Part shown: piece after piece, positions 5,711 to 61,669 of the stretch
Layout of the letters: each line of letters opens with the position of its first letter
Numbering within the stretch: the stretch's first letter is position 1
NCBI GenBank assembly: GCA_023438785.1
Contig: JAEXQJ010000307.1
Span: forward strand, 2,093 to 66,092
Source of the DNA: Pseudomonadota bacterium
GTDB taxonomy: Bacteria; Myxococcota_A; Polyangia; Fen-1088
Reading direction: 5' to 3'
Length of the DNA: 64,000 nucleotides
Translations under genes and position numbers: made by a program
Notes under the pieces: generated by a model
Seen by the model: only the letters and a program-made list of their open reading frames with translations
Told to the model about the DNA's origin: nothing
Databases searched by the model: none

Positions 5711-8700
5711 CTACTGAATCTGGAAGGTAGCGCTGCCCGTCACCGCCGGGCTGAACGCGGCATAGGCATCGGACGAACGGCGCGGGTTGATACGCAGGAT
5801 TTGACCGCGGGCTGGACTGAGCGACGAGCTGAGCGCCGTGCGGCCTTGGTCCACGAGGTACAGGTAGGGGTACTGAGTGGAGAACGGTGGCTGTCCCTCG
5901 ACTGGCACGAAGCTGCTCTGCCGGAAGGGACTCTCGGGAGTCCGCGTGGGCCCCACCACGATGCGCACGCCCTGGCTCAGCATGATGTCGTACGAGGGAA
6001 TGAGCACCGTCTCGGGGGTCACGCCGTCGGACACGTCCAGCCGGAAGCCCAGCCCGTCACCTCCGTATTGCTCCAGATTGGTCAAGACGAACCGAATCTG
6101 GGTGTTCTGGAAGACCGCCTTGGTGTGAATGCCCAGCGCGGTTCCGTTGGTTAGTGTCACGTTGGCCATAAGCAGGCAGGGGTCGGGCGCGACCACCCGG
6201 TCGATGGAAAGCGAAGCCTCGGGCGGCGTGTTCACCTGCCCGGGTTGGTTACCCTGGGCCGGCTGGTCATCCTGGAAGCTCGTGCAGAAAGGCGCGGAGA
6301 GCGGGATGCGGTCCGGCGGCACGCTCGTGTCGCGCACACACTGCCCGCCGACCGTCTTGGCCGTCGGGGTCCTGGGCAGTGAGCTCCCGGTCACCACGAA
6401 GCTGCGTCCCGCATGCACGTTGTACGTGACGGAGGGCTGCGGCCAGCAGGCCGTATCCACCGGCGGCGCTTCCACGCAGAGCGGCCCGATCTCGGGCAGC
6501 ACCCCGGGCACGCTTTCGCACACGTTCCCAGGACGACAGAAGTTGTCACCTTGGGGCGACCCAGCCGCGGGACACCTCTTCACGCAGCGCCGAGGACCGC
6601 CCGCCTGGATCTGCAGACATTGGAATCCCGGGTCAGCTTGGCCGTCCGGCCAGTCAGCTCCGCTTGGCCGGTGCGCTGACGTGACATAACAGTCCGTGTC
6701 CGCCGCACACTCGTCCAGGGTCTGGCGCGACAGCGGCGGCCGCGATACGTCGTCCAATTTGAGCCCAAGCGTGAGTTGGGTGGGCGTTGCGGTTTGAATC
6801 TCGTATCGCCGGCGGCTGTTGAGCAAACGCGTGCACCGCTGCACCAGAGGCTTGCCGGCGGCGGAGTCCTTGGGCAGGCAAAGGCCTCGCACCCCGCCCG
6901 AGACGCGTCGACAGACGAACTCGTCTTGCGGCACGCAATCCGTGTCCTTGAGACAACCGGGCATCACGACCAAGTCGCCTGCCAGAACGCTGTGCGAGCA
7001 GAAGTCGCCTCCCGCATCGATGAGCGTCCCGGCCAGGTTCTCGGCGCCAGGGAGCACGGTCCCCGAGTCTCGACTCGTCTGCGGGAGCAACTCCTCCCAG
7101 ACGATGGTCCAGCGGTGCGAGACCGGCGACGTGGGGTCGGGGAACGCGGCCCACGAATGCTCGATGTTCCCGGTCGCTGACTGGTTCGCGCTCAGGGTGA
7201 TGGAATCCACGTAGGGCCCCTGCGTGGGCGACAGGGATGCGGTTGTGGCGAACAGCAGATCCGATGCGTTCTGCACGCGCAGGGGCGCCGTGTAGGTGGT
7301 GGGCTGTCGGGCACCGGCGTAGCCGGTCGAGCGGGCCTCGCGGAACGCGTGGGTTGCCGTGGAGCGGATGAACTCGAGCGCGAACTTGGCCGGGTCCGGA
7401 TCCTCGTTGGACCGCAGAATGAGCGGCTCAGGATTGGGCGCCAAATTGGTCACGTAGACCGTGCCGTTGGAGGCGAGCAGGAACCCGAACTGGCCCGTCA
7501 GGCCCTGGGGTTTGCTCAGCCAATTCGCCTCCGGGACATCCAACTCCGCGAAGGCAATGTCGCGCGCCAAGGGCGGCTGCACATCCTGTGAGGATAGGAC
7601 GGGGATGGTGATGCCCGGCCCAGAGGCCAGTGGACGCCGCGTTGCGCCCGGCGTTCCCACCGGAATGCACGGCCCGCTGAAGGGATCGGGCAGCCCGGTC
7701 ACGGGATCGGTCTCGGTGAGCCCGGACACGCCCAGGGTCTGGCGCAAAACGGCCTTGTTGGCTTCGCTCGGCTCGATGTTGACGTCGCACTCCCGGCCAA
7801 TGCCGTTGGCCAGGGTGGAATCGAGCTGAACAACGCGTACGGAAGCGTCGCGCGCGAAGGCGTACACGAACCGCCCCCGGTTGTCCAAGAAGTCCCCTTG
7901 CCCCACCTGCTGCCCATTCTCGACCCGCGGCTTGAAGGGATCGACCGTCAGGCGCAGCCGGTCAACGCCCACGGCATTCCCCGCCAGAAGCAGGCGGCCA
8001 CGGTCGACCAGCGCGGCCCCTTGCAGATCGAAGACCGAGATGAACGGAAGCTGGCTTGAGCCCACGTAGACGCGCGTGCCATCGGGGCTGACCGCCAGCG
8101 CGCTCACGCCGAGCGGGCCTGCCGTGGCGGAGCCGGCATTGTCCATCGCGGCGGCGTCGGAAGCGCCGCTGTCGTCCTCCTGCCCCGCGTCCTCCGCGCC
8201 TGCATCGACGAGGCTCGCGTCTGCAGGGCTGGGCGCGGCGCCTCCGTCCAGTGTGCCGAGGCAGTCATTCGCACACTCCGGCTCTGCCCCCGCTCGCACG
8301 GCGCCGCCCGCCTGGATGTAGTAAGAATCGAGGATTCGCCCCGAGGGCAGGTCGAGCAGCGCGAGCAGGTTGCAGTTCGGGAACGTGACCAGGGCCCTGG
8401 GGGCCTGGGTGGCGGAGCACAGCTGAGCAGGCTCAGTCGTCGGCAGAAAGGCAACCTCCCCGGGCGCGGCACGAAGCACGCGCCCTGAGGCCGTGGTCGG
8501 TTGAATGCGGGTCACCACCGCGCCCGCGCCGGAGGCGGCGCCCACGTCGTTGAACAGCGGCGAGAGCAGACGGGACGGATCGATCAACGCCAGATCGCAG
8601 GACTGCCGATTGGCCGTGGCCACCCAGCAGCCGTCCTGGCTGGCCGCTAGAGACTCGGGCATCGTGCCGACCGGGACGGTTCCGAACCCGGGGACGATCG

Positions 8701-9040
8701 GGTCCAGGTCCACCAGACGGTTCCGATCCAAGTCCACCACCGACAACTCGCCTCGGGAGGTGTTGGTCACCACGGCGAAGGTCCCCAGAGTGCGCGGCGA
8801 GGTCAGGCCCGGGCAGCTGTTGCTCGCCGTGGCCTGCGCGCAGGCCCCAGCGGGTTGGCACACGCGCATGGGCTGGCCCGTGAGCACCTCGGTGCCATTC
8901 CCATCCTGCACGGTGGCCAGGCAGAGGAAGCCCATATCCGAAGGCCGTTCCAGATTGCGCGCCGGAATGACCGTGGGCGTATCGCTGCAGGATGAGAGCA
9001 GCACGAGCAGGGAGACAGAGACAAGGGCGTAACGCTTCAT
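5711..9040 (-). CDS. Very large (1109 aa) lipoprotein with beta-propeller (YVTN/NHL-like) repeats and Cys-rich modules
   Basis: Lipoprotein signal (LLVLLSSCS). Repeats of the LAVSPDGTRVYVGS and GTVYVTNL type, plus many paired Cys in the distal half. Its ATG overlaps the stop of the upstream gene (ATGA). Confidence 0.7.
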   Translation of the reverse strand: MKRYALVSVSLLVLLSSCSDTPTVIPARNLERPSDMGFLCLATVQDGNGTEVLTGQPMRVCQPAGACAQATASNSCPGLTSPRTLGTFAVVTNTSRGELSVVDLDRNRLVDLDPIVPGFGTVPVGTMPESLAASQDGCWVATANRQSCDLALIDPSRLLSPLFNDVGAASGAGAVVTRIQPTTASGRVLRAAPGEVAFLPTTEPAQLCSATQAPRALVTFPNCNLLALLDLPSGRILDSYYIQAGGAVRAGAEPECANDCLGTLDGGAAPSPADASLVDAGAEDAGQEDDSGASDAAAMDNAGSATAGPLGVSALAVSPDGTRVYVGSSQLPFISVFDLQGAALVDRGRLLLAGNAVGVDRLRLTVDPFKPRVENGQQVGQGDFLDNRGRFVYAFARDASVRVVQLDSTLANGIGRECDVNIEPSEANKAVLRQTLGVSGLTETDPVTGLPDPFSGPCIPVGTPGATRRPLASGPGITIPVLSSQDVQPPLARDIAFAELDVPEANWLSKPQGLTGQFGFLLASNGTVYVTNLAPNPEPLILRSNEDPDPAKFALEFIRSTATHAFREARSTGYAGARQPTTYTAPLRVQNASDLLFATTASLSPTQGPYVDSITLSANQSATGNIEHSWAAFPDPTSPVSHRWTIVWEELLPQTSRDSGTVLPGAENLAGTLIDAGGDFCSHSVLAGDLVVMPGCLKDTDCVPQDEFVCRRVSGGVRGLCLPKDSAAGKPLVQRCTRLLNSRRRYEIQTATPTQLTLGLKLDDVSRPPLSRQTLDECAADTDCYVTSAHRPSGADWPDGQADPGFQCLQIQAGGPRRCVKRCPAAGSPQGDNFCRPGNVCESVPGVLPEIGPLCVEAPPVDTACWPQPSVTYNVHAGRSFVVTGSSLPRTPTAKTVGGQCVRDTSVPPDRIPLSAPFCTSFQDDQPAQGNQPGQVNTPPEASLSIDRVVAPDPCLLMANVTLTNGTALGIHTKAVFQNTQIRFVLTNLEQYGGDGLGFRLDVSDGVTPETVLIPSYDIMLSQGVRIVVGPTRTPESPFRQSSFVPVEGQPPFSTQYPYLYLVDQGRTALSSSLSPARGQILRINPRRSSDAYAAFSPAVTGSATFQIQ

Positions 9041-10602
9041 TCGGTCACCGCGTGCGGGAATCCAAGCCTCTGTACCACCCGGAACTCGGTCGGGCTGCCC
9101 GGCACAAGGTCAATCACCGAAATGGAGTTGTCGGCGTAGTTCGCCACATAGGCCGTCTGGCCATCGGGTGAGAAGACCAAGGCGTTGGGACTTCGCCCTG
9201 TCTCGATGATGGCGGTCACCTCCAGCAGGGCGGGATCGATCACGTACATCTGCCCGCCTTCGAAGCAGGTGACATACAGCATGTTGCCGCGGCCGGCGTC
9301 ATGCATCTGCAAATCCGTGGGCCCCAGACAGACCTCCACGACCGCCACGGGCCGGTTGGCCGGCTGGCCGGTCTCGTCAGGGCGCCGGTCGAGGACGACC
9401 AGCGCCGCAGGGTCACTGGTGCCCTCATTGCGGTGCAGGACGTAGGCCTCTTGGCGGCAGCTGGTTGCCGAACCGGTGCACGTCGTTCCTTGCATGGCCG
9501 CAACAGCTCCCGGCGACAACACCAGGCCGCGCAGAGATGTGCCGGCGGGCTGGAATGCCGAGGAGAGGATCCGCTGGCCGGGCACCACAGACAGGTCCAC
9601 GTCGGGCAGATTGGTGCGCGGCGCCGCCAAATCGCATGTGCCCTGGCTCGCGTCGCGTAGCACGAGCTCTTCGATCTCCGACCCGCTTCGCTCTATGGCA
9701 AAGAGAGGCGCGTTGGGTCCCGTGCCGTTGAGGCTGAGGTCGGTCACCGACTGTGAAGCGGCGCCGGGGAAGACCGTGCGAGAGACATTGCGGAAACGAG
9801 GCGAGCTCGCCACGTCGGGGCCACCGCACACATCGATGCTGGAAACACCGCCCCCGACGATCTGCCCGTTCACCGCTTGGGCCAGATGCCCCACGAACAG
9901 GATGCCGAGTTCTTCGTTGAGGGCGAGCGTATGCGGTTCCTCCGGCAGCACGTTGGCGTACACCTCCGAATTGGAGGGGCGCCGAATGCGCCAGTTGTCG
10001 TCACACGACGCATTCATTGGGGCGGTTCCTGTGTCGCTGCCGCGCTCTCCCGTACAGCGTATGCGCGGACCGCTATCGTCGACGGTCACGTCGGCGAATG
10101 TGATTGAGGGCTCGGCGCGCACCGTTAGGTACAGGCGCCTCCTGGTCGCGAGTTCCGGGTCTCGCTGCAACACCATCGCTCCACCAAAGCTGCCGATCTT
10201 CACGGTGGTGTCAGCCTTGACGTAGCCCCGATCGTTGCAGTTGAGGACGCGATCGTCGACCATGTCTCGACAGCAGAAGCGGTCGGCCACCTCCTCGTCT
10301 CCGGTGAAGCGGGTCCGGGTGCAGGTTGCCCAGGCCGCTGCCGCGGGATCGCTGCGGTCCTCGACCGCCTTCCGGAGATCCACGGCCGTGAGCGTCCCCG
10401 CGTTGTAGCGGAGGTCGCCGTTGGCGTTGACCACGTAGAGCCAGTCCCCGTTCGGATCGACCGCCAGCCCGGCCGGAAGCAAGATTTCGTCGAGTGGCGG
10501 GGCGATCCCGTCCTGCCCCACCCCGCACCCGGCGACGGAAGACAGCACGCCCACCACAGAGAACAGTCGAAACGTCAAACGGGCAGTCATGCAGGATCTC
10601 AT
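9037..10602 (-). CDS. Lipoprotein (521 aa) with YVTN-type beta-propeller repeats
   Basis: Lipobox (VLSSVAGCG). Motifs include LAVDPNGDWLYVVNANGD and SPDGQTAYVANYADNSISVIDL. It is translationally coupled to the 1109-aa lipoprotein. Confidence 0.7.
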   Translation of the reverse strand: MRSCMTARLTFRLFSVVGVLSSVAGCGVGQDGIAPPLDEILLPAGLAVDPNGDWLYVVNANGDLRYNAGTLTAVDLRKAVEDRSDPAAAAWATCTRTRFTGDEEVADRFCCRDMVDDRVLNCNDRGYVKADTTVKIGSFGGAMVLQRDPELATRRRLYLTVRAEPSITFADVTVDDSGPRIRCTGERGSDTGTAPMNASCDDNWRIRRPSNSEVYANVLPEEPHTLALNEELGILFVGHLAQAVNGQIVGGGVSSIDVCGGPDVASSPRFRNVSRTVFPGAASQSVTDLSLNGTGPNAPLFAIERSGSEIEELVLRDASQGTCDLAAPRTNLPDVDLSVVPGQRILSSAFQPAGTSLRGLVLSPGAVAAMQGTTCTGSATSCRQEAYVLHRNEGTSDPAALVVLDRRPDETGQPANRPVAVVEVCLGPTDLQMHDAGRGNMLYVTCFEGGQMYVIDPALLEVTAIIETGRSPNALVFSPDGQTAYVANYADNSISVIDLVPGSPTEFRVVQRLGFPHAVTE

Positions 10603-28838: not shown

Positions 28839-29738
28839 ATGAAACGACTTGCGTTTGGCCTCTTCGTTGTACTTGCACAACTGGGTACTGGGACGTTGGC
28901 TCAAGCCCAGTCGCCATCGGAAGGCGCCGCCGCAGATCCCGCCCCGGCTGCCGACGCGCCCGCCGAGGCGACCAAGGACGAGCTCCCCGATTTGGGCGAC
29001 CTCAGCGAGGCGCCATCGGTCGAGGAGACCACGCCCGCCCCGCCGGTCAGCGCGAGGCGCTCATGGGAGGACATCGTCGTCGTCCCCCGGAAGGCCTTCC
29101 TCAAGGATCTCCGGGTGGAGCTCGCTCCCTTTACCGGAATCTCGGTCAACGACGTGTTGATTCGTCACTACTCGATCGGTGGTGACTTGAACTTCTACCT
29201 GACCGACGTCTTCTCGGTGGGCCTCGAGGGGCAGTACTTCATCAAGGAGCGCTCCTCCCGAGAGTCGCTCATCGGCCTCCAGTACAACCGCGTCACCACG
29301 CTCAACCGCTTCAAGTACCACGGCGCGGTGAACTTCGGGTACGCGGTCGGGTACGGGAAGTTCGCCCTCCTCAACAAGTACATCGTGCACTGGGACACGA
29401 CGGTCTCCGCCGGTATCGGAATGATCTGGACGGAAATCATCCCCCGCAACGTTGGTGATGAGGTGTTCCAGAACAGGAACCTGGCGCCGCACATTGGTCT
29501 GAGCAGCCGGATGTTCGTTCTCGACTGGCTGACGCTCAGCGTGGCCGTGCGCGACTACATCTTCCTCGACAAATTCGAGCCCCTCGATCGTGGACCTGAT
29601 GGCAGCGGCGGGACCCGATATGCCTCCGCCTCGGAAGCCAAGGCGCACGCCGATAGCCAGCTCACGAATAACGTCATGGTCTTCTTCTCGGTCGGGTTCT
29701 TCCTTCCCCCGAGCTTCTCCTACAAGACGCCCCGCTAG
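28839..29738 (+). CDS. Outer-membrane beta-barrel protein (Myxococcales OMP family-like)
   Basis: Signal peptide (LFVVLAQLGTGTLAQAQ). Alternating amphipathic beta-strand pattern with an aromatic-rich C-terminus (FFSVGFFLPPSFSYKTPR). Confidence 0.7.
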   Translation: MKRLAFGLFVVLAQLGTGTLAQAQSPSEGAAADPAPAADAPAEATKDELPDLGDLSEAPSVEETTPAPPVSARRSWEDIVVVPRKAFLKDLRVELAPFTGISVNDVLIRHYSIGGDLNFYLTDVFSVGLEGQYFIKERSSRESLIGLQYNRVTTLNRFKYHGAVNFGYAVGYGKFALLNKYIVHWDTTVSAGIGMIWTEIIPRNVGDEVFQNRNLAPHIGLSSRMFVLDWLTLSVAVRDYIFLDKFEPLDRGPDGSGGTRYASASEAKAHADSQLTNNVMVFFSVGFFLPPSFSYKTPR

Positions 29739-30603: not shown

Positions 30604-30843
30604 GTGTCTCAGAAGAGGAAAGTCACCCTCTACTTCAACGCGGGCATGTTGGCTGATACCCAGAGAGAGGCCTTGCGTCAGGACCGATCCATCTCTTGGA
30701 TCATTCAGGCTGCCTGGCGCATCGCCCGAGATGAGATGAAGCGGATGCCTGCTGCCATCCCGCAGCAGGCGTCGCCCGATTCGGTCGAGCCGCAGCTCCC
30801 CGACGCGACGACGGGCAACGCCCTGCCCCACGGCCAGGCGTAG
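30604..30843 (+). CDS. Small ribbon-helix-helix (CcdA/CopG-like) protein with a GTG start
   Basis: KRKVTLYFN looks like a beta strand, followed by two helices (GMLADTQREALRQD; SISWIIQAAWRIARDEM), the RHH layout. A GAGGA Shine-Dalgarno sits 8 nt upstream. GC is about 58%, lower than neighbouring genes, so coding status is uncertain. Confidence 0.45.
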   Translation: MSQKRKVTLYFNAGMLADTQREALRQDRSISWIIQAAWRIARDEMKRMPAAIPQQASPDSVEPQLPDATTGNALPHGQA

Positions 30844-30892: not shown

Positions 30893-33800
30893 TCAGGCGA
30901 TTCGGTAGCGCTTGAGTTTTTTCTGGAGCCCGAACCGAGACAGCCCCAGCGCATCCGCGGCTTTGGTCTGGTTGCCGCCGAAGCGTTGCATGGCCTCCCG
31001 CACCAGGATCGTTTCGAGGCGTTCGACTCTGGGGCGCAGGCGAAGCCCGTCGGGCTCGTCACTGACGATGAGGCTGGGGTCCGAGGCTGCCGCGACGTGC
31101 GGAGAAAGATCGTGGGTCGTGATGGCGGTGCCTGAGAAGGCGGCCGCGCGGGCGATTTCGTTCTCCAACTCGCGCACGTTTCCCGGCCAACGGTAGGCGC
31201 ACAGTCTGGCCATGGCCGACGCCTCCACGGACTTCGGCGGCGTGTTCCCGCCGGCGAGCTTGGCCAGCAGATGGTGGATGAGCAGCGGGATGTCCTCGCG
31301 TCGCTCGCGCAAGGGCGGCAGGGTGAGACGGACCACGGCGAGGCGGAAGAACAGGTCCTGGCGGAACTTGTTCTGCTCAACCATGCGCGCCAGATCCTTG
31401 TTCGTGGCCGCCACGATGCGCACGTCGACCCTCTGGGCGCGCTCTCCGCCGACGCGGTGGAACTCGCCGTTCTGGAGCACACGAAGCAGCTTGCCCTGCA
31501 TACCGGGCGACATCTCGGCCACCTCGTCCAGGAACAGCGTCCCTCCATCCGCCACGGCGAACAGCCCCCGCGATTCGCGGTCGGCACCGGTGAACGCGCC
31601 CTTGACGTGTCCGAAGAGCGTGGATTCGAGCAGTGTCTCGGGAATGGCGGCGCAGTTCTCGGAAATGAAAGGCCGTTCGCGCCGCGGGCCGTTGAAGTGA
31701 ATGGCACGGGCCACCAGTTCCTTCCCAGTGCCGCTTTCGCCCTCGATGACCACGGGCAGAGAGGTGTCGGTTACGCGATCGAGCAGGTGGAACAACTCGA
31801 GCATGCGCGGGGTTTGGCCGACGATCTGTCGGTAGTCGTAGCGGAGGTTCGCGGCTTCGCGGCTGATCTTCAGTTCCTCCCGAGCGCCCTGCAGGTCGGC
31901 CTCGCGGCGCTGGAGCTCGCGCTCCAGGCGTCGATTGAGCGCCTGGACCTGGTTCTCGCGGCGGCGCAGTTCTGCGATCAGGCGCACGTTCTCGATGGCG
32001 ATCGCCGCCTGTTCGCCGAAATCCATCACGGTGGCCAGGGCCTCGTCGTCGAAGACGCCCTTGCGTAACCGGTGGTCGACATAGATCGTGCCCACCACGT
32101 TGCCCTTGACGGCGAGGGGAACGGCCAGGACGGAGCGCAGGTGGAGATCGCTGACCGACAGCGCCTCGCGAAAGCGTTGATCCCCAGCCGCGTCGACGGT
32201 CATGACCGGCTGGCCGCTATCCGCTGCTTGTTTGGCGATGGAGCGCGAGAGGGTGAACTCGGGGCCCTCCAGCGAGTGTTGGTCGATGTTGCGCGCCACC
32301 CTCACGGAGAGCTCGCCACTTCCGTCCTTGAGCAGAAGGAATCCACGCTCCGCGTCTGTGAGCTCGATGACGGTGTCGATCACTGTCTCCAGCACGCGGG
32401 CCAGGCGCAGATCGCTGTTCAGACGTTTGTTGATGCGAAGGAGGCGGCGCAGCCGAGCGTCGGCCCGGGTGGCTCGCTCCAACGCAGGGGCCAGGTTGGC
32501 TTCCGCGTCGCCGCGCCGGCGCGGGGCATCGAGGCCAGCGGCGAGGCCAGCGCGGAATTGTGGCGGTGTGTTCATTCTGATCTCCTCGAAGCGATGCTCC
32601 GCACGCGGCAGCTCGGCCGCGGCCCGCGCACTGCCGACCCGATCCCAGAGTCGCCAGGCCAGCCCCCCGGCACGCAGGGCCAGGGGAAGCCTCCCCTGCC
32701 CTTGCGCCGTCTCGGCCAAGCGGGACAGGGTGGACGCGAGGGCGTCGTCGGTCTGGGGATCCGGGGGCGATGCGAGAGCGATGCGTGCCTTGGCCAGAGC
32801 GGGCGCGGCGTGGCTGGGCGTGGCCATCGCCCGGTCTCCGGCAGCCGTGCGCCAGACCTCCTCCGCCGCCTTCACCTGACCGGCCTGAGCGAATGCTTCT
32901 GCTCGGGCGAAGGCGGCGGATTGGGCCATGGCCTGGTTGCCCTGCCTCGCGAACGTCTCACCGGCTTTCGCGTACAGGGCCGCGGCCCGGTCGGGCTGCC
33001 TGGGACGAATCACATCGCCGTCCAGGTGGTATGCGAAGGCCACGAAGCTGTCGCCGCGCGCGGTCTCGGCCTCGGTGTGCAGGCGTTCGGAAATCCGTCC
33101 GGCCCCATGCTCATCGCCCAGTTGGAGGAGCAACTCGCCCGTGTTGAAAAGCGCAAGAGCGAGGTCGGTCGCGACCCGCAGGCGCCCGAGCTCCCGGGTG
33201 GCCTGCGGCAGGTACTGCAGAGCCTCGCTGTATTGGCCTGTTTCGGCGAGCGTGCAGCCCAGGTTCGATTTGGCGGTGGCGAGGCCGTGCACGTCGCCGC
33301 TGGCCTGGTATCGCTCCACCGCCTCTCGGTACGCGGCGGCGGCCTCGCGCGGCCGACCGGCCAGTTGGCAAATGAGTCCACGCATGGCCGGAAGACGCGC
33401 ATCGTTCGCGGCGCCGGGCTGCATCCGCTTGAGGAGAGAGTCCGCTTCGTCACCGCGACCCAGGTAGGCCAAAGCGAGGATTGCCGCCTCGTGATCGGCG
33501 CCTTCCGCAGTGGCCGAGTTGGCGTGGACTGCCGGGGCGGCCGCGGCCAGGGCTTGGTTAAAGAGACCGGCGGAGATCAGCAAGCGAGCCAGACGGGCCC
33601 GCATGGGGACGCGCAGCTCGTCGTTCTCCTCGCCCAACTCGTCGAGCGCTTGTTCGAGGATGCGACGGGCACCGTTGAGAGCGCCGCTGCGGCCGAGTAG
33701 CCAGGCTCGCCGCTCGGCAAGATGCGCTCTCTGCCCTGGGCTGGCCGCGCACGCGTCGTCGAGCAGATCCAGGGCCTCACGGTAGCGGCCCGCGATGCCC

Positions 33801-35815
33801 AAGGCCCGACTCCAGTCCAGGCGATCTGCGAGAGTCGCCACGGTCGAGTCGATGCGGAGCGCGCGCAAACCCCACCGCGCGGCCTCCGCGTAGCGTTCGG
33901 CGTGGATGGCGGACCGCGCGGCCGCGCAGAAGGTGTGCGCCGCCTCGCCGTGCTGGCCGAGCGCCCACTGGCCTTCGCCTCGCCGCGGGTCATCCTGGGG
34001 CAGTTCGGTCGCGCAGAGCCCGGCCAGGTCGGCCAGCGCGGGGTCAGCGGCCAGCGCGCGGCACACCGATTCCAGGTGCTGCGCCCCGGGCAGAGCTTCA
34101 CCCGAGGGAGCCAGCCAACCGGCCGCCCTGGCCTCGCTGGCTGCTCTCTCGCTCCGTTCCGGATCGAACCCGGCGAGCTCGGCCGCGCGCATCGGTGAAG
34201 GCGCCAGGGCCAAGGCCGTCACCCAACGCCGGCTTTCGGGACCCAGGGAGGCGAAGCTTCGATCGAGCAAGCCAGGCAGGTCTGGAGGCTCATCCGAGGA
34301 AGGAGCCGAGAGCGCCTCTCCCCTGACCCATTGGCGGACCAGCAGGGCAGCCGCTGCGGCCAAGCCACCTGAGGCGCGCGCGATTCGCTTCACCGTGGCC
34401 TCGCTGGGCAACTCGCCGGCCGCACGCCGGGCCAGTTCCTGGATCTCGGCCTCGTCCAGGGGGCGAAGTGCGAGGTCCATGGCGTCGGTACGCGCCCAGC
34501 CCTGCTCCACGGGCAAGACGACCAGCAGCCGCCCCGTGTTCCCAGCCGACGCGACGGCTTCGGCCCAGGCCTCTTCATCTGCGCCCGGGCCGAGGACGAG
34601 GCACAGCGGGCGCTCCCGTGCGCGCTCCTCGAGCTCTTGAATCATGGCCGCTCGTCGCGCCTCGGCCTGGCGTCCTGGATCGTCCGCCTCGGCCCCGTCC
34701 GGGAGACGTGCCAGATGGCCCAGGCCGGCTTCGTCGATTTGGAGGGCCGGCATGGCGCCCGAGAGGAGGCCCAGGCGGGCGTCGCGCAGGACACGCGCGA
34801 TGAGCGAGCGGCGCCCCGAGCCCGGTGGGCCAGAGACGGTGACGACGGCGGTGGGTGCGGCGCCTTCGGCCAGCTGTTCCAACGTGCGCAGAAGGGCCCG
34901 TTGTTGCTCTCGCCGCCCGACCAGAACCCCAGCCAGCGGATCGCCCGCCGGGGCCGGCGGGCAAAGCTCGACGGTCAGGTTCGGGTCGGGGATGCGGTTG
35001 TGGATCAGGCGGAGGAGCTCACGCGCGCTCGCGGGGCGCGCCTCCGGGGCGAAGGCCAGAAGGCGACAGAGCAACTCGTCCCACTCGGGTGCAAGTCCCG
35101 GGCAGAGCGCCGACGGCGGCGTCGCGGGCGCCTCCCAAATCCGTCGCGCTGACTCCGTGCCGACGCCAAAGGGAGCCACAGCGGTCCAGGCGTGGTAGAG
35201 GGTCGCGCCCAGGCTGAAGAGGTCGCTGGCCGGTTCGGGCTCGCCCACCAGCGCCTCGGGGGCGATGAAACCGAGTGTCCCCGCGGCCCCTCCGAGGTGC
35301 CGACGCTCCAGCGAGCAAGCCAGACCGAGATCGAGGAGGACGGGTTCGTCCTGCGCGTTGTAGCGCACGTTCGCGGGACTGATATCGCCGTGGAGGATGC
35401 CGCGACCGTGCAGGTAGGCGAGTGCGTCGGCCAGGCGAAGCGCGGCCCCGGCCAGTTGCGCGAAGCGCTCAGGGCTGGCATCCAGACGGTCGCTGAGCGT
35501 GGGCCCTGGCAGCAGCTCGCTCACCAGGAAGAGGCGGCCGTCTGGCAGCCGGCCCGCGTCGCGAATGCGCACGATGTTGGGATGGCCGAGGTCGCTCAGG
35601 CGGCCGAACTCGTCCAACGCGCGGGCCGCGCCCCGGTCGTCTCCGGACGCGCGGAAGAGCTTGATGGCGCACGTCTCCCCCGTGTCCCGATCCCGAGCTC
35701 GGAAGACCTGACCGGTCTGTCCCGCTCCCAGTCGCGGTCCCAGCTCATAGCGACCGCCCAGGAGATCGGAGGTCCGCCCGGCGCCGCGCGTGCCAACCTT
35801 ATTGGCTGAATCCAC
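30893..35815 (-). CDS. Giant (1640 aa) fusion regulator with six modules in order: Ser/Thr protein kinase, STAND-like P-loop NTPase, TPR array, GAF, sigma-54 interaction AAA+ domain (with GAFTGA), and Fis-type HTH
   Basis: Kinase: GxGxxG (LGAGQTGQV), VAIK (CAIKLF), HGDISPANV, DLG, APE. P-loop: VSGPPGSGRRSL. About 450 aa of TPR-like helical repeats. GAF: LARVLETVIDTVIELTDAERGFLLLKD. Sigma-54 activator core: GESGTGKE, GAFTGA, LFLDEV, RVIAATN-like. C-terminal HTH_8 (QTKAADALGLSRFGLQKKLKRY). GTG start. Confidence 0.85.
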   Translation of the reverse strand: MDSANKVGTRGAGRTSDLLGGRYELGPRLGAGQTGQVFRARDRDTGETCAIKLFRASGDDRGAARALDEFGRLSDLGHPNIVRIRDAGRLPDGRLFLVSELLPGPTLSDRLDASPERFAQLAGAALRLADALAYLHGRGILHGDISPANVRYNAQDEPVLLDLGLACSLERRHLGGAAGTLGFIAPEALVGEPEPASDLFSLGATLYHAWTAVAPFGVGTESARRIWEAPATPPSALCPGLAPEWDELLCRLLAFAPEARPASARELLRLIHNRIPDPNLTVELCPPAPAGDPLAGVLVGRREQQRALLRTLEQLAEGAAPTAVVTVSGPPGSGRRSLIARVLRDARLGLLSGAMPALQIDEAGLGHLARLPDGAEADDPGRQAEARRAAMIQELEERARERPLCLVLGPGADEEAWAEAVASAGNTGRLLVVLPVEQGWARTDAMDLALRPLDEAEIQELARRAAGELPSEATVKRIARASGGLAAAAALLVRQWVRGEALSAPSSDEPPDLPGLLDRSFASLGPESRRWVTALALAPSPMRAAELAGFDPERSERAASEARAAGWLAPSGEALPGAQHLESVCRALAADPALADLAGLCATELPQDDPRRGEGQWALGQHGEAAHTFCAAARSAIHAERYAEAARWGLRALRIDSTVATLADRLDWSRALGIAGRYREALDLLDDACAASPGQRAHLAERRAWLLGRSGALNGARRILEQALDELGEENDELRVPMRARLARLLISAGLFNQALAAAAPAVHANSATAEGADHEAAILALAYLGRGDEADSLLKRMQPGAANDARLPAMRGLICQLAGRPREAAAAYREAVERYQASGDVHGLATAKSNLGCTLAETGQYSEALQYLPQATRELGRLRVATDLALALFNTGELLLQLGDEHGAGRISERLHTEAETARGDSFVAFAYHLDGDVIRPRQPDRAAALYAKAGETFARQGNQAMAQSAAFARAEAFAQAGQVKAAEEVWRTAAGDRAMATPSHAAPALAKARIALASPPDPQTDDALASTLSRLAETAQGQGRLPLALRAGGLAWRLWDRVGSARAAAELPRAEHRFEEIRMNTPPQFRAGLAAGLDAPRRRGDAEANLAPALERATRADARLRRLLRINKRLNSDLRLARVLETVIDTVIELTDAERGFLLLKDGSGELSVRVARNIDQHSLEGPEFTLSRSIAKQAADSGQPVMTVDAAGDQRFREALSVSDLHLRSVLAVPLAVKGNVVGTIYVDHRLRKGVFDDEALATVMDFGEQAAIAIENVRLIAELRRRENQVQALNRRLERELQRREADLQGAREELKISREAANLRYDYRQIVGQTPRMLELFHLLDRVTDTSLPVVIEGESGTGKELVARAIHFNGPRRERPFISENCAAIPETLLESTLFGHVKGAFTGADRESRGLFAVADGGTLFLDEVAEMSPGMQGKLLRVLQNGEFHRVGGERAQRVDVRIVAATNKDLARMVEQNKFRQDLFFRLAVVRLTLPPLRERREDIPLLIHHLLAKLAGGNTPPKSVEASAMARLCAYRWPGNVRELENEIARAAAFSGTAITTHDLSPHVAAASDPSLIVSDEPDGLRLRPRVERLETILVREAMQRFGGNQTKAADALGLSRFGLQKKLKRYRIA

Positions 35816-35889
35816 TGACTCTGAGTGTATGGATCCTTTGCGGTTTTTACAATCTGCCTATCGCGTTGCCAGGTGACCGGGGGCGGATG

Positions 35890-36801
35890 TCATGGAGCAT
35901 CGGCAGCGTTGCGTGCAAGACGCTGCAAGGCGGCGCGGGCCATAATGCGAAGCTCCTCATCTTCGTGCGCATCGGCCACGAAGCTCAAATAGTCCGTCGC
36001 CTCCTTGCCTCCGATGGCGGCCACGGCATCGATGATCTTGCGCAGCTCGCGCCGGTCTCGCATGGAGCGGCTTCGGGTCAATTCGGCCACGGCCCGCCGC
36101 TCACGCAGCCGCACCAGCGCACCCAGAGCGGTATCGCGGGTGACCTCGTCCTCGTCCGAGAGAAGCCGCAGCAGCGCCGGCACCTGGTCGAGCAGTCGGC
36201 GCTCGGCCACGACGCGGATGGCCTCCAACCGGAGCTCCCCTCCGCCACCTTCGAGCGCGGCTTTCACCTGGTTCACGTCGCCGAGCCACAGCCGCTGGCG
36301 GGCCAGGTAGGCGCCCACCAAGTCGTCGAGGCTTTGTTCCACCAAGCCGCGCAGAGTGGTGAGCGCGGCCTCCGGTGTCGAGGTCCTCTCGGCCTGGAAC
36401 TCGCCATTCTCCCGAAAACGGGGCGCAGCGCTGCCCTCGGGGTGAATGTCGATGCGTAGGCGTGCCCTGGCGCGCGCGGCGGTCTTGCCGGGCACGGACA
36501 CGAATTCGCTCGCCACGTCGACGCGCACGTTGGCGAGCGGGCCCGTCGCATCGGGAAGCGCGGGGGCGAAGAGCGCAAGCAGACGAGTCCGCACCCGATC
36601 GGCCAAGGCAGCGCGATCCAAGCCGGGTTTGGCATCGCTGTCGGAGAGCAGGGTGACTTGTACGGAGCCCAGCCTGGGCAGCGGCTCGACGGGCGCGCGC
36701 GCCGGCGCTCGTCGACAGGCAGCGAGCGCCAAGGCCAACCCGGTCAGCGCGGCCATCCACCAGCGCAGCTCACTTCGCCGCGGCGGGTGACGCTTCATCA
36801 T
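35890..36801 (-). CDS. HEAT/PBS-lyase-repeat lipoprotein
   Basis: Lipobox (LALALAACR). The C-terminal half has HEAT-like repeats (LRLEAIRVVAERRLLDQVPALLRLLSDEDEVTRDTALGALVRL). ATG-ATG start. It overlaps the GNAT stop in an ATGA arrangement. Confidence 0.65.
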   Translation of the reverse strand: MMKRHPPRRSELRWWMAALTGLALALAACRRAPARAPVEPLPRLGSVQVTLLSDSDAKPGLDRAALADRVRTRLLALFAPALPDATGPLANVRVDVASEFVSVPGKTAARARARLRIDIHPEGSAAPRFRENGEFQAERTSTPEAALTTLRGLVEQSLDDLVGAYLARQRLWLGDVNQVKAALEGGGGELRLEAIRVVAERRLLDQVPALLRLLSDEDEVTRDTALGALVRLRERRAVAELTRSRSMRDRRELRKIIDAVAAIGGKEATDYLSFVADAHEDEELRIMARAALQRLARNAADAP

Positions 36802-37280
36802 CCCAGGCGCTTGGCCAGCGTGACCAGATCGTCGCCCGGCCGGTAGAAGTCCTGGATGAGCCCCACGGTGGTGTAGCCGGCCCGCTCGTAAAAGCGCCGC
36901 GCCCCACCCTGCCCTTCGAGGCTGGAGGTCTCGATACGCAGCAGGCAGGCCTTGCGGTTACGCAGCTCCGTCTCCAGATCGGCCAGGAGCTTGCCACCCA
37001 AGCCGCGCCCGCGCTGTTCAGCCGCCGTCACCAGCCAGTACAGGTCGTAGGTGGCCTCGGTCATGGGCACGGCGCCGAAGCACGCGTAGGCCAGAGGGCG
37101 GTCGTCGTCGTCCACCAAGACGAGGGCCTCGTAGGTGTTGCCCTCTGGCGGGGCGAGCACCGCTTCGAGGAGCTCCAGCGCACACGCCACTTCCTCCGGG
37201 CGGAATGGATTGCCCGTGTCAGGGGCAATCAGGTTCGTGAGCGCAGATCGATCTTTGGGCGAGGGAATTCGTGTTTGCAT
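36798..37280 (-). CDS. GNAT family N-acetyltransferase
   Basis: Acetyl-CoA binding motif A (QRGRGLGGKLLADLE) and a length of 160 aa. Confidence 0.8.
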   Translation of the reverse strand: MQTRIPSPKDRSALTNLIAPDTGNPFRPEEVACALELLEAVLAPPEGNTYEALVLVDDDDRPLAYACFGAVPMTEATYDLYWLVTAAEQRGRGLGGKLLADLETELRNRKACLLRIETSSLEGQGGARRFYERAGYTTVGLIQDFYRPGDDLVTLAKRLG

Positions 37281-39014: not shown

Positions 39015-40574
39015 TCAGCCTTCGGAGATCTCGGCGAAGAAGTCAGCGTCGACGAACTCCACGTTGACGTTCGCGCTGATCACTCCCACACCGTGGCGTG
39101 CGCAGGTCTCCGCGAGCGCCGGACCGTCCACCACCTCGACGGGCGGACCGGGCTGCTTCCACTCGCTGATGGCGTCGTCGGCCAGACGGCCAGCCAGAAT
39201 GAGCAGCCCCTCGTCTTGGTTGCGCGCCCGGATGCCTGCCCGCAGCTCGCCGATGGCACGGCGGCCCGCGGAGGACGACCCGGCACGTAGAGCGATGAGG
39301 CACTTCGAGGGCCGGAAGCCTCGCCCACGCAACGCCTCGACGTAGACCGTCGTCTCCACGCGCTTGACGAAGGTGGCCGGGCCAAAGCCCTCGCGCTGGA
39401 GCAACACGCGCGCGATGGCCTCGAAGGCCGCAGGAGCTAGCTCGCCCATGCGCTGCTCGATGGCCGCCATGGTCCGCTCTCGCAGGGCGCGGCGGGCTTC
39501 ACCGAAGACGTGCTCGGCCTTCTCCAGATCCGAGTCCGGAGGACGGCGCGCCAGGGCGTACAAACCGCTGCCCGCGGGCTTGATGCGCGGTCTCTGCCCC
39601 GCACGCAGCCGCTCCTTGCCCTCCGCCGCCAGGGCCGAGCGCATCACACGCCAAGCCTCGTTCGGTTCACCGTGAATCAGGCGACGGCGCACGGCCGCGT
39701 CGGCAATCTGGCGCACGTGCAGGCCTCGCCCCGGCGCCTGGCCGCGCAGGATCTCTGCCGCCGCATCGCCAGGGGCCATGATCTTGCGAGCCTGCTGGGG
39801 CGCCTCTGCGACCTGCGCCTCAGCGGCGCCGCTGGGCGCGGCGGGACGGCTCTCGGGCTCTTCGGCCTTGGCCTCACTGGGTTCCGCCTCGCTCGGCTCG
39901 CCCTCGGGAGCGGCTTCGCCGCCCTCTTCTGCACGGGCCTCCGCCTCGGGCGCTTCCTCGCCTGCCTCCGCGGACGGCGCCTCGCGCTCCTCTTCCTCTT
40001 CGCCCTCGACCGAACCTTCCAGGACGCCGGTCTCGGCCAGAGCCGCGGCTCGTGCCTCAGCGGACAGCGAGCCAATCTCGGGCTCCTCAGGACCTTCCTG
40101 GCCCTCGTGCTCCTCGGCCGACGGCGCGGCACCTGTCTCTGCGGCGGCCTCGCTGCCCTCGGTGGCTCGCTCGGCGGCTTCCGTGGTGCGCTCGGCCCCA
40201 CCCCGGCGCCGCCCCCGGCCTCCGCGCCGACGTCGCCTTCCGGTCCGGCCCTCGCCGGCTGCGGCCTGCGCCTCGCCCTTGGCGGCCGCCTCCTCCTGTG
40301 CCTCGGCGGGCGTCTCGACCTGTGGCTCGGGCTCAGGTTCGGGCGCGGCCTCCGGATAGCGAAGCAGGCCGAAAACCCCCGGCTTGACCCGAACGAACGG
40401 ATTGCCCGGCGCCTTCTTCACGGCGTTGGTGAGCTGGGTCTGCATGGTGACCTCAGGCGTTCTGCCCACGAAGGTCAACAGCTTCCGGTCCATGGCCTTC
40501 TCGGTCATCTCCTTGAAGTGCAGGGGCCGACGCTCGCGCTTCAAGATCTCAAGTGCTGCTTCCAGGAAAGTCAT
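39015..40574 (-). CDS. HARE-HTH domain protein with a long poly-acidic (E/A/G-rich) linker and a C-terminal Mrr-like restriction-endonuclease-fold domain
   Basis: N-terminus MTFLEAALEILKRERRPLHFKEMTEKAM...GLLRY is HARE-HTH. About 200 aa are highly acidic. The C-terminus (FEAIARVLLQREGFGPATFVKRV...CLIALR) has an Mrr_cat-like PD-(D/E)xK fold. Confidence 0.7.
   Translation of the reverse strand: MTFLEAALEILKRERRPLHFKEMTEKAMDRKLLTFVGRTPEVTMQTQLTNAVKKAPGNPFVRVKPGVFGLLRYPEAAPEPEPEPQVETPAEAQEEAAAKGEAQAAAGEGRTGRRRRRGGRGRRRGGAERTTEAAERATEGSEAAAETGAAPSAEEHEGQEGPEEPEIGSLSAEARAAALAETGVLEGSVEGEEEEEREAPSAEAGEEAPEAEARAEEGGEAAPEGEPSEAEPSEAKAEEPESRPAAPSGAAEAQVAEAPQQARKIMAPGDAAAEILRGQAPGRGLHVRQIADAAVRRRLIHGEPNEAWRVMRSALAAEGKERLRAGQRPRIKPAGSGLYALARRPPDSDLEKAEHVFGEARRALRERTMAAIEQRMGELAPAAFEAIARVLLQREGFGPATFVKRVETTVYVEALRGRGFRPSKCLIALRAGSSSAGRRAIGELRAGIRARNQDEGLLILAGRLADDAISEWKQPGPPVEVVDGPALAETCARHGVGVISANVNVEFVDADFFAEISEG
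39780..40360. repeat. GC-rich low-complexity coding repeat (gag/gcc/ggc-rich) encoding the poly-Glu/Ala linker of the HARE-HTH protein
   Basis: Runs of gcctcggc/ctcctc/ggcttc units are visible. Confidence 0.5.
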
Positions 40575-57524: not shown

Positions 57525-57652
57525 CATCTGCTCGAGCGCCGGCCGAAACCCGGACAGCGTCCACGTGAGCCGCCATTCTCCGGACGAGTGAGCGGAAGAT
57601 CGGCGCGAATCAGCGGCTCCAATTCGGCATGCCCGTTGCTGTGAGCGGGCGC

Positions 57653-59446
57653 ATGCGTACCTTCCCTCTGGCGATGTGTAGCGTGGTGGCTCTCCTGTCG
57701 ACTTCTGCCCATGCGGGCTGGGCACGCGTCCTTCCCGGCTCCATTCAACGCGTGGCCGCCGCAGGTGATCGCGCGGCGGTCGTGCGCGACGGAACCGTCG
57801 TTCTTGTGCGGGAGGATGGTTCACCGCTTGGCCGCGTCGGGGGAGAGGACACATCGAGCGGGCCCCGCGAGCAAGGGGCGGCGGACACGGAGCGCCTGTT
57901 CGATCTCCTCGGAATCGAGGACAGCGAACGCGACGAGGATTGGGCGGCTGACGAGTTGGAGTCCGAACGCACCTTGCGTGCGCGGCGCGCGTCCCGTCGG
58001 CCCGCCTCGCTCAAGCCACGCGAGGCCGGTGTGCCCGTCGTGGCGAGCACGGATGGGCAGATCTGGATCGGCGTGCGCGGCGCTTTGTGGAGGCTGGACG
58101 AACGAGGTGAGTTGGCCAAGGTGATCAGCTCTGCACAGGCCATCGATCACCTCGCGGTGGGCTCGGGCGGCCGCATGGTCATGGCCAAGGGCGCACATCT
58201 CGTGTTCCTGGCCGGCCTGGATCACGTGCGCCACCACGTTGACAGCGAGGCTCCCATCCATCAGCTCGCCTTGTCAGCGAGCGGCCGTAGCCTGGCCTGG
58301 TCCGATGGCAGCAGCGTGATGCTCGCCTCTGACACCGACGCGCTTGCCGCGGTCTCGGTCTCTCTGCCCGGGCCAGCAAGGGCCCTGGCCTTCTGCGAAG
58401 AGACCCTGATGGTCCTCGAATCCGGAGGCCTGACGGCCATCGCATCGGACGGAACCACAGAGCCGCGCGCCTCCGACTTGGATGCCGAGCGGATCATCTG
58501 CTCCTCCGGCGAAAAAGGACCTTGGCTGGCGGTCGGTCCCGGGCTGCTGGCTTCCGGCGATCAGGGACGGACCTGGTCGAGTGTGCCCGGGCCGCCCCAT
58601 GCGCGCGTGATCGACGCGGCGGTGGGCGAGCGTTGCCTCTGGCTGGCCACAGACCGGGGCCTTTACTGCTCGTCCGCGCAGAGCCAACCGACGGAGGGAG
58701 CGGACGCGCCCACCCTGCCCCGACGACGGCCCCGCGCGGCACCCTGGTGGTCCGGGTGGCTGCCCGACATCGTCATCCAGGCGGGCCTGCACAAAAATGC
58801 GGGAGAGCGAGAGGTGCAGGGGCTGGTCTACGCGCGGCTACCCCTCGGCATTCGCCCTCTGGCCCCCGTCCTGGCCAGCGTCGAAGGGGAAGCTGCGCCC
58901 GCTCGTCCGTCGTTTTCCCTTCCGCCCGACGGCGAATCCCGATGCCTCGTCGAGTCTCGAGCACGCGCCGTGAGGTTGGCCATGGCCGAGCCCGAGCGCG
59001 CGCGCTCCTATGTACGTAGGGCGCGCCACGCGGCCTGGCTTCCCGAAGTGCGCGTGCGCGCCGAACGTCGCATCGGCCGCAGCGAGTCACTAGATATCCC
59101 TGCCGCCAACTCCTCGCTCTCTTCCCCTCTTGGGCTCGATACCGTAGATGACGTACGATACGAAGTGCGTGCGACTTGGGACTTGGCAAGGCTGGTGTTC
59201 AGCAGTGAGGAGCTCGCCGCGCAGACACAGGCGTTGCATATGGCAGAAGCGAGGCGAGACATTGAGACGACCGTGAGCCGGCTCTACTTCGAGCGCCGCC
59301 GGCTTCGCCTGGCGGAGGCGGTCGAGCCGCTCGCCGCCGCACAACGCGGGTTGCGAGTGAGCGAAATCGAATCCGAGCTTGACGCCTTGTCCGGAGGCAC
59401 ATTCTCGGCCTGCATCGAAGGCCGGGCCACACCAGGAGAGCCATGA
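57653..59446 (+). CDS. Secreted hypothetical protein (about 600 aa) with an N-terminal beta-rich region and a C-terminal coiled coil
   Basis: Signal peptide (MRTFPLAMCSVVALLSTSAHA). I recognise no catalytic motifs. An alternative ATG lies at 57629. Confidence 0.6.
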   Translation: MRTFPLAMCSVVALLSTSAHAGWARVLPGSIQRVAAAGDRAAVVRDGTVVLVREDGSPLGRVGGEDTSSGPREQGAADTERLFDLLGIEDSERDEDWAADELESERTLRARRASRRPASLKPREAGVPVVASTDGQIWIGVRGALWRLDERGELAKVISSAQAIDHLAVGSGGRMVMAKGAHLVFLAGLDHVRHHVDSEAPIHQLALSASGRSLAWSDGSSVMLASDTDALAAVSVSLPGPARALAFCEETLMVLESGGLTAIASDGTTEPRASDLDAERIICSSGEKGPWLAVGPGLLASGDQGRTWSSVPGPPHARVIDAAVGERCLWLATDRGLYCSSAQSQPTEGADAPTLPRRRPRAAPWWSGWLPDIVIQAGLHKNAGEREVQGLVYARLPLGIRPLAPVLASVEGEAAPARPSFSLPPDGESRCLVESRARAVRLAMAEPERARSYVRRARHAAWLPEVRVRAERRIGRSESLDIPAANSSLSSPLGLDTVDDVRYEVRATWDLARLVFSSEELAAQTQALHMAEARRDIETTVSRLYFERRRLRLAEAVEPLAAAQRGLRVSEIESELDALSGGTFSACIEGRATPGEP

Positions 59447-61586: not shown

Positions 61587-61602
61587 TGGCACGCTGCTGG
61601 CA
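61587..61602 (+). promoter_or_regulatory. Candidate sigma-54 (-24/-12) promoter TGGCACG-N4-TGGCA upstream of the lytic transglycosylase gene
   Basis: ctggcacgctgctggcat. GG and GC have the correct 12-nt spacing. There is one mismatch to TTGCA (TGGC). Confidence 0.35.
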
Positions 61603-61669
61603 TGTCAGGGACGTGAACCCGGCGCGCTCGCCGCGAGTTGCACGACAACCCAGATGTGAAGAGGTTTCC

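Follow-up and report, generated by a model that had tools for sequence, protein, structure and literature searches.

In a 64,000 nt stretch of contig JAEXQJ010000307.1 (hereafter, the window), a single gene on the minus strand at positions 30893–35815 codes for a 1640 aa sigma-54 activator that carries a kinase/STAND/tetratricopeptide repeat (TPR) module ahead of its output domains. The gene is chromosomal, its place in the local gene order is conserved in a lineage of uncultured Polyangia, and it is apparently single-copy at the locus. The explanation that we consider probable overall is a cytoplasmic activator made as one polypeptide, which combines a PknK-like sensor module, in which the kinase and the nucleotide-binding oligomerization domain (NOD) are degenerate, with a sigma-54 output, and which regulates its own gene through a candidate site. 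The family is already present in public databases under generic names; what is new here is the analysis of its motifs, a candidate operator and a candidate target gene.

Gene and domain architecture

The coding sequence, from the list of open reading frames (ORFs) and its translation, consists of 1640 codons and a stop, and begins with GTG. The uninterrupted ORF lies on the minus strand, and a plus-strand translation of the same interval contains many stops; the first-pass annotation of the window had the span and the GTG start right and omitted the strand. The N-terminus is conserved in the alignment of relatives, and the G+C content at third codon positions (GC3) is 0.81, the same as in adjacent genes and uniform along the gene. 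A search of 5.8 billion proteins returned 476 matches at E ≤ 1e-10, and of the best 120, nearly all are full length (1640–1740 aa), with 45–69% identity over 96–100% of the query and the same set of Pfam domains. A protein identical to that of the window is recorded on 3 contigs. When checked against orthologs, the single reading frame is continuous in more than 115 full-length relatives with 47–70% identity and an unchanged domain order, and the same gene calls are found in seven distinct loci that were fetched for comparison.

Pfam matches, with bit scores compared with the gathering cut-offs, and AlphaFold models place six modules on the polypeptide in the order that had been proposed (coordinates are on the minus strand). 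The Pkinase domain (111.6 bits, cut-off 31.7) occupies residues 23–267 (35015–35749), in agreement with the kinase fold claimed earlier, and is followed at residues 298–500 (34316–34924) by a domain with a STAND/AAA_16-like nucleotide-binding-domain fold, in which the P-loop is degenerate and the Walker B acid is absent. Residues 501–1095 (32531–34315) form a helical, winged-helix-like region and then a TPR-type alpha-solenoid. The GAF domain spans residues 1138–1275 (31991–32404; Pfam 1138–1274, 67.4 bits, cut-off 22.4), and a long helical linker seen in an AlphaFold model (residues 1276–1325; 31841–31990) leads to the sigma-54 interaction AAA+ domain and its lid at residues 1331–1579 (31079–31825), which are matched by Sigma54_activat (residues 1331–1497, 230.2 bits, cut-off 20.2) and AAA_lid_14 (residues 1503–1579, 77.1 bits). 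At the C-terminus is a Fis-type helix-turn-helix (HTH) domain, HTH_8 (residues 1597–1637; 30905–31027; 43.2 bits, cut-off 22). Pkinase, TPR, GAF, Sigma54_activat with its lid, and HTH_8 were all detected by hidden Markov model (HMM) searches, those of the five domains being above cut-off, and the one predicted domain that fell short was AAA_16, at 31.2 bits over residues 298–408, slightly under its cut-off of 32.6.

The AlphaFold model of residues 1–1135, built from 116 relatives, has a mean predicted local distance difference test score (pLDDT) of 90.5 and a predicted template modelling score (pTM) of 0.89. It shows, in order, a kinase fold, a five-stranded alpha/beta P-loop domain, a helical region and an all-helical solenoid that ends at about residue 1092. 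The solenoid is uninterrupted from about residue 578 to 1092, with pLDDT mostly above 90, and agrees with the first-pass estimate of about 450 aa of TPR-like repeats; the HMM evidence for these repeats covers a much shorter stretch (TPR_12, residues 812–873, 35.4 bits, cut-off 30.1). Foldseek matched the model to the STAND-TPR protein 6mfv over 712 columns (E 7e-11), and matches to TPR_MalT occur in distant members of the family. A sequence search of the PDB with the central 861 aa found designed or kinesin-light-chain TPR proteins only, and no STAND protein. Taken together, the Hanks kinase, the STAND-type NOD fold and the TPR solenoid make up a PknK-like module that fills the N-terminal 1100 residues.

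A complete NifA-type output, with GAF domain, long helical linker, AAA+ domain with GAFTGA motif, and HTH_8, occupies the C-terminal 540 residues. These align end to end, GAF included, with A. vinelandii NifA (9qq6_C, 5e-86), and PDB matches to this half include NifA, ZraR, FleQ and NtrC1 (1e-66 to 1e-86). The expected motifs are present as GESGTGKE, GAFTGA (residues 1406–1411; 31583–31600), LFLDEV, FRQDLFFRL and PGNVRELEN, and the activator claim of the first-pass annotation is upheld by these, by the Sigma54_activat score and by the intact HTH_8. Conservation was followed in alignments of 36 and 116 relatives: GESGTGKE, LFLDE and PGNVRELEN are found in 36/36, GAFTGA in 31/36 (with GAYTGA in four and GSFTGA in one), and the recognition helix GLSRFGLQKKL of HTH_8 is invariant. 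The sequence features expected of a sigma-54 enhancer-binding protein (the HMM match, GAFTGA, Walker A and B, Arg fingers, sensor II and HTH) are all found. In a second AlphaFold model, which covers the C-terminal part, the GAF and AAA+ domains are joined by a single helix of about 56 residues (approximately 1257–1312; residues 698–753 of that model). Judged by its motifs, this half should bind DNA, form hexamers and open sigma-54 promoters with ATP. Mean identity among relatives is 79% for GAF, 76% for AAA+, 73% for HTH, 53% for the kinase, 43% for the NOD and 42% for the TPR region, so that GAF is the most conserved part of the protein and the activator half stands above the N-terminal half.

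Altered motifs in the kinase and NOD domains

The kinase motifs are GAGQTGQV (G-loop), CAIK (with Lys52), HGDISPAN (35369–35392), DLG and APE; all the motifs quoted in the first-pass annotation were found, and their coordinates were re-derived. Lys52, Glu69, Asp144, Asn149, Asp162 and Glu187 (of APE) are either invariant or conserved in 90% or more of the sequences of the two alignments, and Thr180 is also kept. The G-loop varies over the clade, with forms such as SGGAFGEV and AAGPGGEV. The arginine of the HRD motif is replaced, HGD being found in 124 of 139 family proteins scored, and the earlier description of the kinase as non-RD stands, with the correction that the catalytic-loop lysine has gone as well. 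When the register is set against PknB (HRDVKPAN), the catalytic loop reads HGD[ILV][SCA]PxN, and the lysine is replaced by Ser146 in the window protein and by Ser, Cys or Ala in 36/36 close relatives. Kinase activity cannot be assumed, because this lysine is missing, and we infer that the kinase of the window clade is a weak or atypical enzyme.

The P-loop of the middle domain is GPPGSGRRS (34805–34831), with Arg335 at the position of the Walker A lysine, and the pattern in the clade is G-x-x-G-x-G-R-[RH]-[TSA]. All 36 sequences of the smaller alignment have this arginine, and in the alignment of 116 its conservation is 90% or more. The Walker B strand is PLCLVLGPG, and the position that follows is G, A, D, E, S, P, R, T or Q across relatives, leaving no conserved Walker B acid among those aligned. 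Its fold has five beta strands alternating with helices in the AlphaFold model, profile matches to Cdc6/ORC, Apaf-1 and NRC1 are weak (E 1e-4 to 3e-3), and AAA_16 reaches 48.9 bits in distant family members. Compared with the usual definition of a STAND protein, the NOD fold followed by a helical/winged-helix region and a repeat sensor is present, and canonical Walker A and Walker B motifs are lacking. With both the Walker A lysine and the Walker B acid lost, a working nucleotide switch is unlikely in this clade, and the 'nucleotide-switch scaffolding' proposed in the first-pass annotation is not supported. The domain is probably STAND-like in fold and not an NTP-driven switch in the window clade, and would probably serve as a static scaffold or at most as a nucleotide binder.

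An exhaustive HMMER search of 1.84 billion cluster representatives with the family-specific central 861 residues retrieved 119 proteins at E ≤ 1e-10, and matches to the whole query occur almost exclusively in proteins of 1590–1722 residues, starting at about residue 270–305 of those proteins. Distant members, with 28–32% identity in the central region, have the same six Pfam families as the window protein, and a homologue search seeded with one of them added 317 further proteins from Polyangia, Kofleriaceae, Nannocystaceae, Polyangiaceae, Myxococcota and two Planctomycetota metagenome-assembled genomes (MAGs). At NCBI these are named 'sigma 54-interacting transcriptional regulator', and many relatives carry the automatic JGI name 'serine/threonine-protein kinase PknK'. 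No member of the family comes from a cultured strain. The first-pass annotation considered the arrangement not to be a characterised system, and no description was found in the full-text literature searched; the arrangement itself is not rare, as Myxococcota MAGs contain hundreds of such proteins and Planctomycetota a few, all under generic names.

The distant clades have a canonical P-loop, GxxGxGK[ST]R, and a canonical catalytic loop, H[RH]DVKPxN. Among proteins of at least 1500 aa containing GAFTGA, the two lysine substitutions travel together: 122 proteins combine a non-Lys catalytic loop with a Walker A arginine, 8 retain lysine at both positions, and 7 are mixed (four with catalytic-loop Lys and Walker A Arg, two with a non-Lys loop and Walker A Lys, and one with a non-Lys loop and Walker A Val), counts that are not independent events since the sequences are related to each other. 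The direction is clear all the same, with both catalytic lysines altered in the window clade.

Promoter and candidate operator sites

Within codons 4–8 of the gene (A-N-K-V-G) is an inverted repeat, GCCAAT-AAG-GTTGGC (GCCAATAAGGTTGGC; 35792–35806, minus strand), which we regard as a candidate operator or a candidate binding site for the HTH of the activator itself. A related site, GGCAAC-GCG-ATAGGC (GGCAACGCGATAGGC; 35856–35870, minus strand), lies 55 nt upstream of the start and abuts the -35 hexamer of a positionally conserved, sigma-70-like promoter, TTGTAA-17 nt-TACACT (35824–35852, minus strand). The consensus of the candidate site is the inverted repeat GCCAA-N5-TTGGC. Conservation was assessed in eight loci, namely that of the window and seven distinct orthologous loci that range from 70% down to 48% identity. 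Codons 4–8 read G[CT]C AAT NNN GTT G[GT]C, at +9, in 8/8 loci. In the remainder of the window gene, AAT is used for 1 of 33 other Asn codons and GTT for 3 of 76 other Val codons, and because these rare codons are fixed across proteins that are 48–70% identical, the constraint at +9 acts on the DNA. The upstream site, G[AGC]CAAC-N3-ATAGGC, is kept at -54 to -56 in 6/8 loci. A scan for the degenerate motif GNCAAY-N3-RTWGNC over the 144 kb of the eight loci found it at 20 distinct positions (33 strand-wise matches, as palindromic sites match both strands), of which 19 are at -55, at +9 or just past the stop codon and one is elsewhere. A second exact copy of GCCAAT-N3-GTTGGC is found at 7796–7810 of the window, within a 1109 aa ORF (5711–9040, minus strand) with no Pfam family, and no sigma-54-like promoter was found near it.

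The promoter takes the form TTGnAA-17 nt-TAtAaT in all loci, with TATAAT in three of them (L007, L010 and L013). The end of the -10 hexamer lies 8 nt ahead of the GTG in the window and 7–8 nt ahead of the GTG or ATG across the eight loci, and no Shine-Dalgarno sequence was seen ahead of the activator start in any of them. The short distance and the missing Shine-Dalgarno sequence suggest a leaderless mRNA, which in the window may begin with the GTG itself, and autoregulation of such a gene would be consistent with the positions of the -55 and +9 sites. A consensus promoter/terminator scanner detected neither a sigma-70 promoter nor a terminator for the gene, the window promoter being too weak for it. 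Scanning the window for the sigma-54 consensus with up to two mismatches gave 10 matches against 11 expected, none adjoining the activator gene. The upstream 'TGGCAAC...GGCA' was considered as a sigma-54 promoter and rejected, as its GG and GC elements miss the proper spacing by one nucleotide and relatives carry GA at that place. The best sigma-54-like match in the window is TGGCACGCTGCTGGCA (61587–61602, plus strand; one mismatch), which ends 11 nt ahead of an ORF with an SLT domain (61613–62593), in a window where such matches are overall at chance level.

A lipoprotein gene downstream of the activator in related loci

In five of the related loci, a further gene lies downstream of the activator gene on the same strand (L007, 13278–13667; L008, 13249–13671; L010, 13193–13609; L013, 9176–9571; L014, about 9190–9600). 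Its product is a conserved protein of about 130 aa with a signal peptide and a lipobox-like motif, C-[NGT]-[SAP]-P-[FV]-[IY]-P-[IV]-P-P-P, which is clear in 4/5; the five proteins, secreted proteins or lipoproteins by these features, are mutually homologous and have no Pfam family. The repeat GACAAC-N3-GTTGGC occurs just past the activator stop codon in 5/5 loci that have the lipoprotein gene, and is followed in 4/5 by a sigma-54-like GG-N10-GC motif (L007, TGGCCCGTCCGTTGCT; L008, GGGCGCGATTCTTGCT; L010, TGGCGCGTCGCCTGCA; L013, a version with three mismatches) that is 18–53 nt ahead of the lipoprotein gene. The gene is missing from the loci of the window, L006 and L012, the latter two being the closest relatives of the window locus, and no homologue was found anywhere in the 64 kb window.

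Gene neighbourhood

The activator gene sits in a conserved gene order: Ddl / HARE-HTH/Mrr, LipB, ATP-grasp, HEAT, activator gene / two or three convergent genes, FtsY / SMC. The upstream part of this order is kept in 7/7 fetched loci and the downstream part in 6/7, with L007 deviating, and the remainder of the window consists of core metabolism and information processing genes. This stable housekeeping order indicates a chromosomal orthologue, as opposed to a component of some mobile or defence island. Directly upstream, on the same strand in all seven fetched loci, is the gene for a HEAT-repeat protein (HEAT_2; 35890–36801, minus strand in the window). No nif genes occur within the window.

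Several other features of the neighbourhood may be recorded. A 79 aa ORF with no Pfam match (30604–30843, plus strand) is convergent with the activator gene, and genes of 58–86 aa are called at the corresponding position in 6/7 related loci. A GNAT acetyltransferase ORF (36798–37280, minus strand) lies between the ATP-grasp and HEAT genes and overlaps both; it is particular to the window, occurring in 0/7 distinct related loci. The HARE-HTH protein with an Mrr-type endonuclease domain (39015–40574, minus strand) adjoins lipB in every related locus, an unusual location for a restriction-like protein. ORFs with gene-like GC3 and no Pfam match are found at 5711–9040 and 1502–2707 (both minus strand), and at 57629–59446 and 28839–29738 (both plus strand). 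The one of these that codes for 299 aa is kept between FtsY and an outer-membrane beta-barrel gene in related loci.

Proposed mechanism and alternative explanations

In the scheme that we favour, the N-terminal kinase/NOD/TPR module would be an added sensor that regulates the output. Proteins or peptides are the usual partners of TPR solenoids, and the solenoid is predicted to bind a partner of this kind, with GAF binding a small ligand. If NifA, NorR and NtrC1-type activators are taken as models, the AAA+ domains would be kept inactive by GAF and the long helix, and binding of partner and ligand would release this GAF/coiled-coil hold on the AAA+ ring, after which a hexamer would assemble on the repeat and open sigma-54 promoters at the expense of ATP. 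In clades with canonical motifs, ring assembly could be driven directly by STAND-type ATP-dependent oligomerization and by autophosphorylation; in the window clade, the N-terminal module would act as a scaffold or a ligand-gated clamp. The candidate sites at -55 and within codons 4–8 would mediate autoregulation, and in most of the orthologous loci the activator would also switch on a sigma-54 promoter ahead of the adjacent lipoprotein gene, a target that is absent from the sub-lineage of the window.

A number of observations weigh against parts of this scheme. All other catalytic residues of the kinase are retained, and it could be fully functional through a compensating mechanism; likewise, the arginine at the Walker lysine position may still bind nucleotide and allow a switch based on binding alone. 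No rpoN was seen within the 64 kb window. The ligands, substrates and oligomeric states are taken from the respective families, and the C-terminal model leaves the packing between domains uncertain (pTM 0.60). The position of the palindrome is the sole basis for assigning it to the activator rather than to some other regulator, and AT-ending codons near a start can reflect selection against mRNA structure. The sigma-54-like motifs carry 1–3 mismatches, and in L014 no such motif occurs with the correct spacing.

The most substantial alternative, which we judge unlikely, is that both N-terminal domains are fully active, the NOD cycling between ADP and ATP to drive oligomerization, the kinase phosphorylating itself or the activator and so gating transcription, and GAF being active too. 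In its favour, none of the six modules is missing and all are under selection, the kinase retains Lys52, Glu69, Asp144, Asn149, Asp162 and APE, the P-loop glycines and the arginine after them are conserved, which argues that the loop is not decaying freely, and the canonical motifs of distant relatives imply that the ancestral protein probably worked in this way. Against this, the Walker A lysine has become arginine and the Ser/Thr after it Arg or His, there is no conserved Walker B acid, the catalytic-loop lysine is missing in every close relative aligned, and the paired nature of the losses suggests a joint change of mechanism in the clade. The opposite extreme, that the kinase and the NOD are both dead and the N-terminal 1100 residues are a platform for protein binding or oligomerization, is favoured by the loss of the two lysines, the variable G-loop and the lower identity of the N-terminal half (42–53%, compared with 76–79% for GAF and AAA+). 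It is distinctly improbable, as the catalytic Asp and Asn, the DFG Asp, the beta-3 Lys, the alpha-C Glu and GT...APE are invariant or close to it, which is unusual for a dead kinase.

Two further readings have very little in their favour. One is that the protein belongs to an anti-phage or conflict system, either STAND-based (Avs-like) or kinase-based (PD-T4-6, MADS), and has its transcriptional output as an incidental property. This is suggested by PADLOC and NCBIfam matches of the kinase domain to PD-T4-6 and mad6, and by matches of the AAA-HTH part to RtcR/PspF models. These are single-domain matches that fall far under the family cut-offs (MADS6, 132.8 bits compared with 460), the NOD-TPR part has no PADLOC match at all, and the gene is found in a conserved housekeeping block rather than a variable island, with presence and gene order stable down to 48% identity; identity as a defence system was rejected on these grounds, and we hold it to be highly improbable. 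The chance that two or three adjacent genes have been joined by a frameshift or a lost stop codon is negligible. The unusual length of the product alone raises the question, and nothing in support was found; the independent full-length relatives, from many metagenomes and covering 100% of the query, refute it, and the identical protein on three contigs, the uniform GC3, the confident AlphaFold model across the kinase-NOD-TPR junctions and the unchanged gene calls in the seven fetched loci all speak against it.

The favoured scheme, a degenerate PknK-like sensor on an autoregulating sigma-54 activator, could be carried further, to a self-contained regulatory unit of an undescribed type in which joint replacement of both lysines turned the enzymes into sensing pseudo-enzymes, the operator lies in the first eight codons of a leaderless mRNA, and the activator drives the lipoprotein gene. 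We offer this as a tentative extension, possible though rather doubtful. If true, the paired loss of lysines would imply that catalysis by the kinase and by the NOD was coupled in the ancestral protein.

Comparison with known systems

The usual switch of a sigma-54 activator is a receiver, GAF, PAS or V4R domain, and eukaryote-like kinases and STAND NTPases are two other large signalling families that have expanded in myxobacteria. A conserved chain that joins these three families offers a direct handle on how kinase/STAND sensing is wired to transcription, and the clades with canonical kinase and P-loop motifs, set against those with both altered, provide a natural experiment. With the candidate site GCCAA-N5-TTGGC and the lipoprotein gene next to the activator, the regulon can be predicted from nothing more than MAG sequence.

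Myxobacteria have greatly enlarged repertoires of both Ser/Thr phosphorylation and sigma-54 activators, and the two are presumed to be linked. Kinase-activator fusions are reportedly mentioned in the genome and kinome papers on Sorangium cellulosum. In myxobacterial kinase-to-activator signalling, with its FHA-domain activators and the Pkn cascades of Myxococcus xanthus, kinase and activator are separate proteins, whereas here they are on one chain. General background on myxobacterial signalling is given in two reviews (PMC4880591, PMC8538405). Full-text literature on myxobacterial genomes, kinome classification, the phosphatome and sigma-54 regulons, with the Perez 2008 kinome paper not covered, yielded no description of a kinase-sigma-54 activator fusion.

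In its GAF domain, its AAA+ domain with GAFTGA and intact motifs, and its Fis-type HTH, the protein resembles NifA, NorR and FhlA. It is not a NifA orthologue: the nearest NCBIfam model, TIGR01817, gives 391.9 bits against a cut-off of 528.85, and the protein differs from NifA in the additional 1100-residue N-terminal kinase/NOD/TPR module and in a GAF-to-AAA+ linker that is one long helix. The best Foldseek match over the kinase and helical repeats is PknG (7mxb_A, 806 columns), with low TM-scores (0.20, 0.32), and PknG has no NOD, GAF, AAA+ or HTH domain.

PknK of M. tuberculosis consists of a Hanks kinase and an AAA_16/MalT-like region, and, as described, has the same order of kinase, P-loop NOD and TPR_MalT-like solenoid; the window protein differs in being fused to a sigma-54 output, and in the replacement of the Walker A and catalytic-loop lysines in its clade. 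The MalT/LAL and AfsR/SARP-STAND activators use LuxR or SARP domains to act on sigma-70 RNA polymerase, and their intact P-loop must bind ATP. They share with the window protein a NOD, a TPR sensor and a DNA-binding output on one chain, but the window protein has a degenerate NOD P-loop and sends its output to sigma-54 through a second, AAA+ ATPase. All of its parts are known, and it represents no new regulatory principle; it brings together on one chain a PknK-like sensor module and a NifA-type output.

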